Shown here: one piece after another, positions 9,001 to 15,000 of the stretch | How the letters are laid out: each line of letters starts with the position of its first letter | How positions within the stretch are numbered: position 1 is the stretch's first letter | Position numbers: made by a program | NCBI GenBank assembly: GCA_039802605.1 | Contig: JBDRWW010000012.1 | Span: 1-42,019 of the forward strand | Source of the DNA: a candidate division WOR-3 bacterium | Lineage (GTDB): Bacteria; Hydrothermota; Hydrothermia; LBFQ01 | Direction: 5' to 3' | Length of the DNA stretch: 42,019 nucleotides

Positions 9001-12000
9001 AAATCCAAGTTGGAGGAATCTTCAAAAAGGATAGGAAACAAACCCGCATTCTTAATACTCCACCAAAGCGTTGGGGAAGATATACCGTATTACTCCATAA
9101 AATACTCCGACATACCCCAAAACTTTCGGGTTATCATAAACGGGCACATACACAAACCACTAATAAAAGTTTTGCCCGATAGGAGGCTTTTTATAAATGT
9201 TGGTTCTACGGAATACGAAAATATTTCCGAATCGGTTGATTATAGGGAGATTTTGTTGTACGATGGGGACGAGTTTTTGAGATTTGTTTTGAAAGGGGTA
9301 TATATTTTAGAAAACGGGTATTTATTTGTTGAGAAAAGCGGAATTACCGACGAAGGCATTATACCGAAGGAATACATAAAAAACGAATCTTTTATACCTT
9401 TAAGGAAATGTCGCCCTTTTATGAGGTTTGATTGCGATGATTGGAAAACCTTGGAGATGGCATTGGAAAAAATAAAGGATTACGGTTTAAAACCGCCGTA
9501 TTTAAGGGTTGAACTCGGTTCGGAAAATAGAAGGGAAGTTGAGGAAAAACTTACGAGGCTTTTGGATAAGGGTTATATTTATAGGTATTTCATAAAAACC
9601 AAGAGTGCTTTAATTGATGATAGGGGTAATATCCAAATCCAAAGGGGGGGAATGGAGTTTGAAGATATGGAACCTTTAAAACCCTACGCAAACCTTATAA
9701 GATCACTTAGGGGTTTGGATGAAGAGGGGTTAAAGGAAAGGTTAAGGGAATACTTTAAACTGGGGAGATAGCCCCTTGATAAACATTACAACCTTATAAT
9801 ACCCGTTTAACGGGGCGGTAGCTCAGCTGGGAGAGCGCCTGAATGGCATTCAGGAGGTCGGGGGTTCGAGTCCCCTCCGCTCCACTTTTTTATTTTATCT
9901 TACCTTAACACCCCTTTTTAACGAACTCCAAACCCAATCCAAAACTATGTGCATCGTATCCGCGAACAGAATACCCAACAAAAAGGGGATAAAATAGGGG
10001 TTTTTGAATATTGAAAGGGGTTTTAATTGGGGAGGTGATAAGCCTAGATTGTAAAGCGTTCCTGTTATTGAAAACCAAAAGAAAAGGAAAATGGCAAATA
10101 TATATCCAAACCTCGTTAAAATCCCTAAAATCGGAACATGCGATATTCCCCTATGTGGAACAATTAAGGAATAAGGCCTCCATATAAAGGATAAAATTCC
10201 CCACCTTTTAACGGGTTTTGAGTGGCTTAAATCCAAATCCGGGGAAAACCAAAGGGTCGCAACCAAACTCCCCAAACAAAAGGCAACAACCTCATCCAAA
10301 CCCATACCCCTTGAATACGCAAAATAACCCAATATTGCCGTTGAAACTATATTAACCCTATCGTGGGTTTTTCCGGATGGCATTTAAATGCTCCCTCAAA
10401 GTTGCCGATTTATACTTTGCCGCGCGGGATTTGTGGGGTTTTATCTCCGCGGTTATAAAATCCTCTTCAAAAATTTTCCCCTCTGCCTCAACACTCCCAT
10501 CACCGTTAATAACCCTTGAGCCTCCAAAAAATATTATACCATCCTCAACCCCAACCCTGTTTGCATAAATGGTTGGAATTCCAAAGAACAAAGGGGGTAT
10601 GGATGCTATTCTATGCCAAACATTTACCGAATTGTCGGATATAACAACCCTTAAAGGGTTGTTTGCGATGAGGAGGATATAATCGGCATCGGCATAAGAA
10701 AGATACGAATCCAAGTGCCAAGCATCCTCGCATATAAGAATTCCAAACTTTCCTAACCTGCTATGGATAAGATTAAACGAACTCCCCGCCGTAAAAAACC
10801 TCCCCTCGTCAAACATCCCATATGTTGGCAAATATACCTTTTTATGAATCCCCCTTATCTCACCATCTTCAACGAATACCGCGGAATTATAAAATTGCCC
10901 GTTTTCCTCTATTATTGCGCCAAAAACAACGGCCATACCCTTTGAAGAGTCCAAAATCTTTTTGATTTCATAGGAATGTAAATCAAGGGCAACTATTGGC
11001 GTCATCCAACCCGTAAGGTAGCCTGTCAAACTCAATTCCGGAAATACGATTATATCCAGCCCCTTTTCCCTTGCGTTGTTTATGTATTTCAAATGCAAAT
11101 CCAGGTTATTTTCAACATTTAAAAGTTTAGGGCGTATTTGGGCTATACATACTTTCAAGCGGGTATTTTATGGGAGTCATATCTCCACCATACAAAACTT
11201 TCACCCTTAAAATATCCGCCTCAGTATGGTAAAGATAAGGCTCCAGAGGGTTGGAAAGAAAAACGACCCAAGGTATAGGATAATTGTTGCGGATAGTAGA
11301 ACAAAGCGTGATGGAAAGGTTATAGAGATTTTGGGGCACCTCAACCCAAAGGACGATAACGATTGGAGTTTAAACTATGATAGGTATAAGTATTGGATAA
11401 GTGTGGGTGCCCAACCTACGGAACGCGTTTTATCCATTGTTAGAAGGTTTGAAAAACAACAGGCGACAAACTAAAAGGAGGTGAAATATGGAACTGAAGG
11501 AACTGTTAGAATACATAATAAAGGCGCTTGTGGATAATCAGGGAGAGGTTTCAATAACCGAGGTAAAGGGTGAAAGGGCGGTAATATACGAGGTAAAGGT
11601 CGCGGACGAGGATAAGGCAAAGATCATAGGCAAGCAGGGTAGAACCGCAAACGCCATACGCCGTATAATAGAGGCAATAGGTAGGAAGCAGGGTAGGGTT
11701 GTAAGGGTAGAGATTCTGGCTTGAGGGTTAAGGTGGGGTTGATAACCAAACCTTTTGGGAGGTGGGGGGAGGTAAGGGTTAAAACCTCCTACCCACCCTC
11801 TTTTTTTGTTAACAAGCGGGTTTATGTTCTTAATTCGGAATATAGGGTTTTGAATGCGAGAAAATATAAAGGGGAGTTGATAGTTTTAAAACTATCCGGC
11901 GTTGAGGATATAAACCAAGCGGAGTTGTTGAGGGGTTTGTATTTGGAAGTTGATGAGAGTGATTTGGAACCTTTGAAAGAAGGGGAGTTTTATGTTTATC

Positions 12001-15000
12001 AGATTATAGGTTGCAGGGTTTATGATGAAAACTATGGATACCTCGGTGTGGTTAAGGATATGCACGAATGGGCACCCTATTGGACATTGGAAGTGTTGGG
12101 GGATAGAGAAATACTCATACCCTTCGTATCCGAATTCGTTTCCGATGTAGATATCGAAAAAAAGGAAATAAAAACCAGACTGCCAAAGGGTTATGTGGAA
12201 AATTTATGAAATAGTAGAGGGTTATAAAAACAAAAGGTTTTCGGCAAAAGAGGTTTTTGAAGAGATTGGAAAGAGGATAAAAGAAAACGAACATCTCAAC
12301 GCGTTTATCACCCTCAACGAGTCGGATATACCCGAAAACGCACTGCCCATAGCGGTCAAGGATAACATTATAACAAAGGGCATAAGGACAACCGCAGGTT
12401 CAAGGATTTTGGAAAACTATATACCACCCTACAATTCAACTGTTGTTAAAAGGCTGCTTGATAAAGGCTTCTACATAGTGGGTAAAACAAACCTTGACGA
12501 ATTTGCCATGGGTTCAACGGGTGAAAATTCCGCATTTGGACCAACGCTAAATCCCTATAATAATGAATTGGTTCCTGGAGGGTCCTCGTCCGGTTCGGGT
12601 GCCGCTGTTGGCGCAAAAATGGTTCCCGTCGCCCTAGGAAGCGATACGGGTGGTTCAATAAGGTTGCCCGCGGCATATTGTAATATTTGGGGTTTTAAAC
12701 CCTCTTATGGCAGGGTTTCAAGATTCGGCCTAATAGCCTTCGCCTCGTCCCTTGATGTAATAGGGCCTATGGCATTATCCCCAAGGGATATAACCCTTGT
12801 AATGGAAATCATCTCGGGATACGACCCATTTGATTCTACGAGTTTAAAGATTGATGGTGTTAAAAGGGAAAGGGTTGATGAATTAAAGCGTAAAGGAAAA
12901 TGGGAAATAGGTGTTTTGGAAAACCTTTTGGATGTACTTGATGGGAAAATATCCGAGAAATTTGAGGTCTTTTTAAGGGAAATTCAAAAGTTCGGAGTTG
13001 AAATAAAAGGAATAAGTTTAAACTTTTCCGAATTCGCCCTGGCATCATATTACATAATAGCATCTTCCGAGGCTTCCTCAAACCTCGCTAGGTACGACGG
13101 CGTTAGGTACGGCGCCAGGATTATGGGCAATGACCTATGGGATACCTATGAGAGGACCAGGGAACTTTTTGGAAATGAGGTTAAGAGGAGAATAGGTATA
13201 GGGACATTCGCCCTTTCTTATGGCTATTACGATAAGTATTATTTAAAGGCATTGCAGGCCAGGAGGCTTATAAGGGATGAGTTAAATAAAGCCCTTGAAG
13301 GCGTTGATTTTTTGGTAATACCAACCTCCCCTTCCCTACCGCCAAAAATAGGTGCGGGATTTTCACCTTTGGACTACTATAAACTTGATAGTTTAACCGT
13401 TCCTTTTAGTTTGGCGGGCTTACCCGTTATGAATGTTCCCTTGGGTGATTTCGTTGGCGTTCAGGTTGCCGGGAGGTTTGCAGGGGATGAAGGGGTTTTG
13501 GCATTTTCCGAAGTTTTGGAGGAAATAATTGGATAACTTTGAACTATTTTACGGGCATTATATACTAGGTAGGTTTTTGATGGAAGATTATAGGTTTTTT
13601 GATACGGGGGTTGAAAGGGGTTATTTTGTAATACTTTCGGGTGATTATGACGATTACGATGTTGAACTGTTAAAAAGGAACCGGATATTTAAGGAAACCT
13701 ATGTTTATAAGGATGAGGGAAGGATTGCGGTAATGCTCATAGAGGATAAGAGGGAAAGGTTTCCAACCTTGAATGTTGTAATGTTTCTCCTAACCCTTTT
13801 ATCAACATTCTTTGTAGGAGCCTTACAGTTGGGTTATAATCCCTTTGGCCCGGATATTTTGAAAGGTTGGATATTTTCCATTCCCCTTTTATCAATACTC
13901 GGGGCACATGAGTTTGGACACTTCATAGTTGCCAGAAGGTATGGAATACCCACATCTTGGCCTTATTTTATACCCTTTCCTTCAATAATAGGGACAATGG
14001 GGGCGGTTATTAGGCTTAGGGGCTTTATACCGAGTAGGAGGGCGCTATTACATATGGCCTTTGCCGGACCCATAGCGGGTTTCATAGTCGCATTACCGGT
14101 TTTGTGGATGGGGTTAAAACTTTCAAAGTTGGAGAGGGCGGTTTTTGAAGAGGGTGTATTTTTCGGAGAACCCTTGATCTTCAAGTTATTTTCATATATG
14201 ATTTTCGGGAATGTTGGGGATAACTTGGTTATAAACATACATCCCTTAGCCTTTGCAGGTTGGGTTGGTATTTTTGTAACCGCTTTGAACCTGATACCTA
14301 TGGGTCAGTTAGATGGGGGGCATATATTCTACGCCTTATTCCCAAAATATCACAGGATTGTGGGTTGGATTGTGGTTATCCTTTTAATAATTGGGGGAAT
14401 TTATTGGTCGGGTTGGTTTATATGGGCATTTTTCGGAATATTCGTAGGGGTATATCACCCACCTGCGGCCTTTATGGAGAGGAAGTTAAAACCCGTTGAT
14501 TACATTATAGGAGCTTTATCCGTAATAATGTTTATCTTGTGCTTTATACCGGTTCCCGTAAGGGTTTTGTTTTAACCCTAAAAACTATATCTCAAATGTA
14601 AAAACAGGGATCTTCCGGCCTGTGGTAGGGATGAAGGGTCCAAAGACCTGTAAGCAATGGCATTGTTCAGGTTATAAAGTCCAATCACGCCCGTAAGATT
14701 TCCAAACGAGATGTTTAAACCAAGGTCTACGGTTAAAAACGGGGGTTTTTCTTCCTCTATTTCGGCAACTTCCTTTGCTTCCGCTTGGTAGAAAATGTTT
14801 ATAAAGGGAGAAACCCTCGAATTGTACCCCATCCTCAAAAACATCCTTAAAGGAGGAACATCCGAGAGTTTAACGCTTCCCGCTTCACCCTCCATAAGCG
14901 TTATACCCGGATTCAAATAAACATTGCCGAATTTTAAATTCCCCTTTCCTTCAATCCCAAAAATCGTGGCGACTTCCGGAAGGTTTTTATATGAGAATAC

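Follow-up and report, generated by a model that had tools for sequence, protein, structure and literature searches.

How a bacterium delivers its membrane proteins once its signal recognition particle (SRP) has gone is the question raised by a short gene block in a candidate division WOR-3 bacterium of the class Hydrothermia. SRP is the machine that delivers new membrane proteins to the membrane in nearly all cells; textbooks treat it as universal, and in E. coli it is essential. An earlier note on this DNA claimed that Ffh, FtsY and the SRP RNA have been lost from the whole class and read the rpsP-khpA-rimM block as what is left of an ancestral rpe-ffh-rpsP locus. Within the window, by which we mean the whole stretch of 42,019 nucleotides that was analysed, the features at this locus are as follows:

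10358..11158, minus strand: nitrilase-family gene, divergent from rpsP, in the position held by rpe in seven class relatives
11159..11225, no strand: gap of 67 nt 5' of rpsP, without an ffh remnant (ffh needs about 1.3 kb)
11226..11474, plus strand: rpsP, ribosomal protein S16 (TIGR00002, over cut-off)
11488..11724, plus strand: khpA, KH-domain RNA-binding protein of 78 aa (NCBIfam KH-domain models, E 1e-22, below cut-offs)
11721..12209, plus strand: rimM, 16S rRNA maturation factor (TIGR02273, over cut-off)
12193..13536, plus strand: gatA, after rimM (TIGR00132, over cut-off)

The block at 11226-12209 does consist of rpsP, a KH-domain gene and rimM; the name khpA is taken from the earlier note, and the khpA cluster is found after rpsP across the phylum. 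In the ancestor, rpsP would have been the first gene of the block that came after ffh. The window itself, however, does not preserve a remnant of the rpe-ffh-rpsP order, since rpsP is preceded by the 67-nt gap and the divergent nitrilase-family gene, and the rpe of this genome lies outside the window on contig C1. A nitrilase-family gene at the position where seven relatives carry rpe indicates rearrangement of this locus after SRP was lost. On the other side of the block, gatA replaces trmD-rplS, which come after rimM in most relatives.

The loss of the whole SRP pathway is nonetheless real and extends throughout Hydrothermia. All 64 genomes of the class lack Ffh, FtsY and SRP RNA, in agreement with an independent KEGG annotation, and they represent 12 families with the source genome's own included, not 12 besides it as had been counted. 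The source genome has no ffh, ftsY or SRP RNA even with unfiltered profiles, the phylum-specific ones giving nothing below E 0.04. The Ffh M domain is found in 0/64 Hydrothermia genomes versus 163/208 other genomes, and a free-standing M domain, as an M-domain-only Ffh remnant would show, is absent from these 64 and from the 22 genomes of the second SRP-less class introduced below. Matches to the SRP54 GTPase family exceed Pfam's low cut-off in 17 of the 64 genomes, with a best E of 2.8e-7; all matches listed are partial, none of them passing model position 118 of 196, and the three that were scanned are AAA_22, MeaB and KaiC/RadA-like proteins. The FtsY N domain is absent from the four Hydrothermia genomes searched. 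The large SRP RNA (RF01854), left unsearched in relatives by the earlier note, is found in none of the 64 genomes, and the small SRP RNA (RF00169) is found above noise in 0/33 Hydrothermia genomes (the sole match covers 20 nt, E 0.34) versus 21/25 genomes outside the two SRP-less classes. Within the window, a weak Ffh-like match at 31888-32394, between mutS2-like and formiminotransferase genes, has a genome-wide E of 0.016 and crosses a stop, and was dismissed as chance.

This absence was already on record, although searches for papers on SRP or Ffh in WOR-3 had been said to yield nothing. Table S4 of PMC12542636, which covers 181 WOR-3 genomes, gives ffh and ftsY as 0 in 47 of 47 Hydrothermia (subgroup 3) columns, and also in an 11-column run that matches UBA3073 rows by position. 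The zeros are tabulated there without comment, the loss is not analysed by RNA, gene order or trees, and 'signal recognition' and 'SRP' do not occur in the main text.

Hydrothermia are also not alone. The earlier note was right about this class, but missed further losses in the phylum when it held that other WOR-3 classes keep SRP: a second whole class and the single genomes G108 and G021 lack all three components. The second class, probably UBA3073, comprises 22 genomes (G250-G271) from seven families, with 0/22 M domains, 0/22 SRP RNAs and no FtsY-level match. Six of these genomes have strong SRP54-family matches; the one scanned is FlhF, located in an flhA-flhF-flhG run, and the other five have similar scores. 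Together, the two SRP-less classes account for 86 of 272 genomes, about a third of the phylum.

The relatives, rather than the window, provide good support for the ancestral rpe-ffh-rpsP order. rpe adjoins ffh in 15/16 sister-clade loci, the intact rpe-ffh-rpsP order is found on two unplaced metagenome contigs, and in 7 of 20 Hydrothermia loci rpe is followed by rpsP with 38-60 nt between them. As the genomes are labelled here, the two previously cited for this last arrangement, G047 and G057, do not have rpe beside rpsP; the seven that do are others of the class. The SRP RNA gene lies directly upstream of dnaX in 20 of the 21 relatives that have one, and is absent from this site in 13/13 Hydrothermia loci, 15/15 second-class loci, G021 and G108; in 20 such vacated loci, Rfam matches are tRNAs only. 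The lost RNA is mostly of the large type, about 265 nt, and not the 4.5S RNA originally named, as 18 of 20 scanned RNAs from relatives are large. Because smc was not found in Hydrothermia with the queries used, the smc-ftsY site is unusable for this class, and it is uninformative for G021 because the sister genome G020 also lacks ftsY after smc. Vacated gene sites are likewise seen in the second class, G108 and G021, and in G108 all three are closed up.

These sites bear on whether the genes are present after all and simply unassembled or too diverged to detect, which we consider highly improbable. The searched genomes are all assemblies of at least three contigs, none closed, the best being 99-100% complete in 3-4 contigs; for many, scoring covered the best 41 of as many as 63 first-look candidates, the multi-genome RNA searches were run with stricter filters, and the risk is higher for the single genomes G021 (90% complete) and G108 (93% complete). 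Detection failure would nevertheless have to remove three unlinked genes jointly from 86 genomes, the 99-100% complete ones included, and leave closed-up sites behind, in the face of both the unfiltered phylum-specific profiles in the source genome and the concurring KEGG annotation. Outside the two SRP-less classes Ffh is missed in 23/186 genomes, a rate at which chance absence from all 12 families would be about 1e-11, roughly and with families assumed independent.

On this evidence, the phylum ancestor had Ffh, FtsY and a large-type SRP RNA, and these were deleted locus by locus on at least four branches. A single clade of both SRP-less classes, and with it one shared loss, is rejected (p-AU 3.2e-7, under LG+G4 with one distant root, the grouping being tested after the first tree was seen), and the mixture-model tree needs four changes. 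Loss followed by regain in the relatives was also rejected, as the Ffh tree mirrors the species tree. Hydrothermia and the second class deleted SRP independently, and the lineages of G108 and G021 likely did so as well.

SRP-less cells keep SecYEG, SecDF, SecA, one YidC and trigger factor. SecY is present in 34/34 Hydrothermia and 22/22 of the second class, YidC in 32/33 and 18/18, and SecA in 12/12 and 5/6; SecD/F was found in 5/5, and trigger factor in all four SRP-less genomes checked. One query for yajC found nothing in the source genome. The share of membrane proteins is still normal, with 308 of 1594 ORFs having an internal membrane segment and 113 having at least four.

On balance, and by a narrow measure, we favor targeting that uses this machinery without a dedicated adaptor. 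No such adaptor would have taken over from SRP; instead, translating ribosomes may reach SecYEG/YidC by virtue of an intrinsic affinity for the translocon, or ribosome-bound SecA may catch them. Either could suffice if cells are thin and grow slowly, with the membrane close by and a long time window. SecA binds ribosomes much like SRP (PMC6692507, partial text), E. coli survives without Ffh when translation is slower (PMC7844537, partial text), and thin cell shape has been proposed as an explanation for Leptospira (PMC4758666, partial text). The sole cultured member of Hydrothermia, strain sy37 (NBRC 116057), the one strain behind the cell-width evidence for the class, measures 0.3 µm across and has a doubling time of 10 h (PMC12285271).

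A replacement factor was not found among the YidC tail, SecY, ribosomal proteins and signal peptides, and no change in SecY, SecA, uL22, uL23, uL24 or uL29 is common to all SRP-less lineages. Common substitutions in these proteins and uL4 are class-specific or conservative and do not exceed those in control proteins. The SecY C4 loop has lost its basic residues in the family of the source genome (3/3), a poor fit with ribosomes that dock directly and more tightly. The SecA zinc tail is missing in 7/9 complete Hydrothermia SecAs versus 0/5 from SRP-keeping relatives; several of the tail-less proteins end in basic residues, and loss of this tail makes the binding of E. coli SecA to ribosomes fourfold tighter (PMC6620043, partial text). 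The tail is kept in two of the nine Hydrothermia SecAs, in two of three second-class SecAs checked and in both G108 and G021, and is also missing in the SRP-keeping controls Thermus, Thermotoga and Synechococcus. SecY and YidC helices show no shift in hydrophobicity, lower or higher. Short signal peptides, considered as a cause or partner of the loss, do not track it: judged by eye, start sites included, the BamA leader is short in about 20/20 full-length Hydrothermia sequences, but by eye a short leader also occurs in 5-6 of 10 SRP-keeping genomes, and 8/8 second-class genomes and G108 have a normal one. A -10-like box abuts the start of 49% of operon-first genes in the source genome; the frequency is lower elsewhere (20% of Hydrothermia loci, 11% in the second class, 6-10% in SRP-keeping clades), so leaderless transcripts are not general.

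Replacement of SRP by a dedicated, unrecognised protein or RNA seems unlikely to us. Mitochondria provide a precedent in Mba1/Mdm38 and the Oxa1 tail (PMC8321541, partial text), a novel gene near Sec genes has been proposed for Leptospira in the available part of PMC4758666, and four losses in one phylum suggest a common factor that made SRP redundant. No class-specific gene cluster lies beside yidC in 23 Hydrothermia loci, however, and the vacated sites offer only the 38-60 nt gaps left by ffh and, where the RNA stood, nothing known to Rfam except tRNAs. We give only a small chance to the idea that mRNAs for membrane proteins are brought to the translocon or made next to it, which would put ribosomes at the membrane from the start and spare the protein any targeting factor; the sequences examined contain nothing in its favor, even though in E. 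coli the binding of mRNAs to SecYEG and YidC does not depend on translation (PMC10066597, partial text) and a 0.3-µm cell would favor mRNA-first delivery. Such delivery overlaps with adaptor-free capture and may act alongside it.

A takeover by YidC, either present in a second copy or equipped with a long basic tail that binds ribosomes, is the bypass known in Streptococcus mutans (available part of PMC10066597), and the YidCs of second-class genomes G252, G253 and G254 do have longer basic tails. For Hydrothermia this route is largely refuted and we rate it very low: YidC is single (G089 has two partial pieces), and the stretch beyond the start of the last helix is just 20-27 residues long in 23/23 proteins, no more than in SRP-keeping relatives.

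The way around SRP could also be older than the losses. It is conceivable, if somewhat doubtful, that an SRP-independent route for membrane proteins was in place in the phylum ancestor, such as SecA- or translocon-led ribosome capture or an unrecognised adaptor, and that this route rendered SRP redundant in every descendant, with the four separate losses as its visible result. If so, relatives that keep SRP should tolerate a deletion of ffh, and co-translational SRP targeting would have a general alternative, so far unstudied and open to biochemistry in sy37.

Natural losses of SRP were previously known from a few scattered lineages. Here, they affect two whole classes plus two other lineages within a single free-living, double-membrane phylum, each alongside close relatives that keep SRP and with its deletion scars left to see, and such pairs allow paired comparisons of what makes SRP dispensable. 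For Hydrothermia, these ideas are testable in sy37, a pure culture with a closed genome. Since ffh and ftsY often serve as universal marker genes, their absence from the two classes, roughly one in three genomes of the phylum, is also a warning for that use.

Other SRP-less systems resemble the WOR-3 case in part. S. mutans strains lacking SRP and rescued by YidC2 likewise live without the pathway, but according to the available text of PMC10066597 these are laboratory deletions in a species with two YidC paralogues, whereas Hydrothermia combine natural loss with one short-tailed YidC. In E. coli, suppressors of an ffh-null mutation map to IF2, IF3 and uS3, and slower translation can bypass SRP (PMC7844537, partial text); the uS3 tryptophan (Trp22) altered in this slow-initiation bypass is kept in 11/11 Hydrothermia sequences and changed in 2/7 second-class ones. 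Natural loss of Ffh, FtsY and SRP RNA is described for Leptospira, as well as for Dehalococcoides and SAR86, in the available part of PMC4758666. Leptospira and Hydrothermia share the absence of all three components, a retained Sec translocon and, judged by strain sy37, thin cells. WOR-3 differs in having no Leptospira-like novel gene beside yidC or secY, in an RNA that was mostly of the large type, and in a loss that spans two classes (12 and 7 families) and two lineages within one phylum and has left deletion sites that can still be seen.

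No signal recognition particle (SRP) component was recovered from the genome under study, G000 (1.65 Mb, 23 contigs, 90% complete). Its best match to the SRP54 GTPase family, which covers both Ffh and FtsY, has an E-value of 2.1e-4, spans model positions 3–90 and falls below the cut-off; it is a KaiC/RadA-like ATPase and was rejected as Ffh or FtsY. Ffh and FtsY profiles built from same-phylum proteins and run unfiltered on 27,226 six-frame ORFs gave best E-values of 0.086 and 0.15, a 30-protein Ffh profile reached 0.041, and a profile of 21 phylum SRP RNAs 8.8. Across the class Hydrothermia (64 genomes, none of them closed, kin that are not independent, some 99–100% complete in 3–4 contigs), the Ffh M domain is found in 0/64 genomes versus 163/272 in the phylum. 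Among the candidates scored in each genome, SRP54 GTPase matches exceed the low Pfam cut-off in 17 of the 64 (best E 2.8e-7) and, among those listed, end by model position 118 of 196; for comparison, true FtsY scores 1e-67 or better across the whole model. Three class matches that were scanned proved to be AAA_22, MeaB and KaiC-like proteins and were rejected. The N domain is absent from the four class genomes searched, and the small SRP RNA family from 33, save one 20-nt match (E 0.34); of 25 genomes that belong to neither SRP-less class, 21 carry that family. Large SRP RNA, the gap named in the earlier note, has now been searched for in relatives and is missing from all 64 class genomes. With no M domain, no full GTPase domain among the listed matches and no large SRP RNA, the absence is class-wide, as had been claimed, and the loss is almost certainly real.

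SRP loss is wider than the earlier note claimed. Other WOR-3 classes were said to keep SRP, which does not hold for a second class of 22 genomes in seven families (G250–G271, including G255), with 0/22 M domains and 0/22 SRP RNAs. Six of its genomes contain SRP54-family matches (E 1e-40 to 1e-47); the one scanned is FlhF (over the cut-off), encoded between flhA and an flhG-like gene, and was rejected as an SRP GTPase. This class is probably UBA3073, because a Candidatus Stahlbacteria record falls inside it on the SecY tree and the pattern matches a published table. The M domain is also missing from a further 23 genomes, of which 19 encode an FtsY or Ffh GTPase domain and four (G021, G108, G118 and G226) do not; G118 (85% complete) and G226 (75%) have SRP-positive congeners and were left out of the losses. 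In the single-genome lineage G108 (93% complete), all three SRP sites are closed up: PASTA-rpe directly meets a PcrB-family gene at the position of ffh in G107, smc directly meets a peptidase gene at the position of G107 ftsY, and dnaX abuts the gene that precedes SRP RNA in 12 relatives. In the other such lineage, G021 (90% complete), tatC lies 115 nt from rpsP and tRNA-Ala is followed by dnaX; its sister G020 has tatC-ffh and tRNA-Ala-SRP RNA-dnaX.

In a tree of concatenated ribosomal proteins, SecY and RpoA, the two SRP-less classes each form one branch (support 100); Hydrothermia is sister to an SRP-keeping clade (support 94), and the second class joins other SRP-keeping clades (support 96). 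One shared loss, which would unite both classes as one clade, was rejected (p-AU 3.2e-7, LG+G4, E. coli root), and a SecY-only tree with ten outside roots, from which 15 close rows were dropped, agrees with the concatenated tree. The minimum number of changes on the concatenated tree (mixture model, 34 rows, five of them less than half filled) is four. Regain by transfer is unneeded, since the Ffh tree of 31 relatives mirrors the species tree. Judged from these phylogenies, SRP appears to have been lost four times in the phylum, not once.

Because the finding is an absence, whole genomes were tested; the window is a mere marker of SRP loss. Its features include the following.

9812–9885: tRNA-Ala(ggc)
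11226–12209: rpsP, a KH-domain gene and rimM
36115–36187: tRNA-Gly(gcc)

On the 5' side of rpsP, a 67-nt gap is followed by a divergent nitrilase-family gene; gatA is the next gene 3' of rimM. There is neither a trace of ffh nor rpe at this locus, the rpe of G000 sitting on contig C1, and the reading of this block as a remnant of rpe-ffh-rpsP is not confirmed. The window also encodes a Mre11/SbcD-like nuclease (8530–9771) and a HerA-like ATPase (16985–18652), archaeal-type repair genes less than 8 kb apart. Elsewhere in G000, the S10-spc-alpha ribosomal protein cluster is split into at least five pieces (contigs C2, C3, C6 and C8). A −10-like box directly precedes the start codon in 49% of 401 operon-first genes (control 6%), and a Shine-Dalgarno-like motif occurs in only 13% of them; the transcriptome is probably largely leaderless.

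An ancestral rpe-ffh-rpsP order is well supported, though by relatives and not by the window. In the sister clade, the SRP-keeping clade nearest the class, rpe lies 5' of ffh in 14/15 loci (with ~0.7 kb between in G093), as it does in G107; loci of other clades show this in 0/15 cases. It lies 38–60 nt 5' of rpsP in 7/20 class loci, and, of 80 metagenome contigs retrieved with rpe, two carry the intact order (L402 and L405, unplaced, with Ffh ~55% like that of genome G022). Against the simple picture, rpsP directly follows ffh in none of 30 phylum loci, one of which runs to the contig end. An identical collapse onto rpsP, but from a different 5' gene, is seen in G021. In L471, a metagenome contig from an unplaced organism, PASTA gene-rpe directly joins rpsP-trmD-rplS (962–1904), the collapsed order of the class; this is possibly another lineage with ffh lost or moved.

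SRP RNA lies directly 5' of dnaX in 20/21 relatives, and in 0/13 class and 0/15 second-class loci. Ten of the latter 15 sites retain the tRNA-Ala that precedes SRP RNA in G020 and G017. The lost RNA was mostly of the large type, not the 4.5S RNA named in the earlier note: 18 of 20 scanned relatives have the large type (~265 nt) and two the small. Small SRP RNAs of 82–86 nt occur in two SRP-keeping families (L051 of G017, L056 of G001), most relatives having the large form. These families have shrunk their SRP RNA: other parts of the phylum, too, are trimming the pathway. Relatives have smc 5' of ftsY; no smc homologue was found in G000 or G085 with the queries used, nor the SMC hinge family in G049, G075 or G260.

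A simple hydropathy scan of G000 places an internal membrane segment in 308/1594 ORFs (four or more in 113); therefore, the need for membrane targeting remains. The genome retains one copy each of SecY, SecA, SecD, SecF, SecG, YidC and trigger factor. Known ways of bypassing SRP were checked. The YidC tail is short in 23/23 class proteins, with no long tail; no substitution in SecY, SecA or tunnel-exit ribosomal proteins is common to all SRP-less lineages, and the uS3 tryptophan at the E. coli suppressor site is kept. In the family of G000, the conserved basic stretch of the SecY C4 loop has given way to uncharged residues and is one residue shorter in 3/3 sequences (G000:C2:107323-108651, L059, L060), and a neighbouring family shows the same change in part. 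At 12/12 second-class yidC loci (L120, L124, L125, L128, L130, L139, L142, L145, L147, L163–L165), the genes that follow yidC elsewhere in the phylum, which we take from usual gene order to be jag and an mnmE-like gene, are non-adjacent.

Short BamA leaders, read by eye, occur throughout the class and in 5–6 of 10 SRP-keeping genomes, very short ones in G128, G225, G232, G093 and G206 (L313, L316, L317, L312 and L314), and are absent from the SRP-less second class; short signal peptides and SRP loss are therefore not tied, and the trait is wider than the class. The zinc-binding SecA tail is lost, often with lysine/arginine runs instead, in 7/9 complete class sequences and 0/5 SRP-keeping ones (G000:C3:24679-27612 and L478–L507), and the C-terminal zinc motif is also lost in G263 of the second class. 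Truncating this tail in E. coli raises ribosome affinity fourfold and silences basal ATPase (PMC6620043). This is a weak lead on a coping route: the tail persists in the class members that branch earliest, in two of the three second-class genomes and in both single-genome lineages, and it is missing from three control bacteria that keep SRP.

We lean slightly towards a route with no adaptor and no dedicated SRP replacement. Ribosomes would dock directly on the translocon, SecA would capture ribosomes as well, and thin cells and slow growth would make both routes sufficient. This reading draws on SRP-like ribosome binding by SecA (PMC6692507; PMC8082313), slow translation that bypasses Ffh (PMC7844537), the thin-cell idea proposed for Leptospira (PMC4758666) and the cultured strain sy37, which measures 0.3 µm across and doubles every 10 h (PMC12285271) and is placed in the class by PMC12542636.

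As in the earlier note, no paper that discusses SRP loss in WOR-3 was found (subscription journals lay outside coverage), but raw zeros are in print. For ftsY and ffh, Table S4 of PMC12542636 gives 0 throughout subgroup 3 (47 columns) and across columns 5–15 of subgroup 4; tied by position only, these correspond in Table S2 to 47 Hydrothermia rows, which fits the class name, and to rows 5–15, UBA3073. The main text does not mention SRP. The PMC12285271 supplement has a heat map with a Sec-SRP row, and passages of PMC12826062, PMC13721041, PMC13059738 and PMC2905702 hold nothing bearing on SRP loss in the phylum. Natural SRP loss is known, all three parts having been lost in Leptospira, Dehalococcoides and apparently SAR86 (PMC4758666); here it is unusually broad and repeated.
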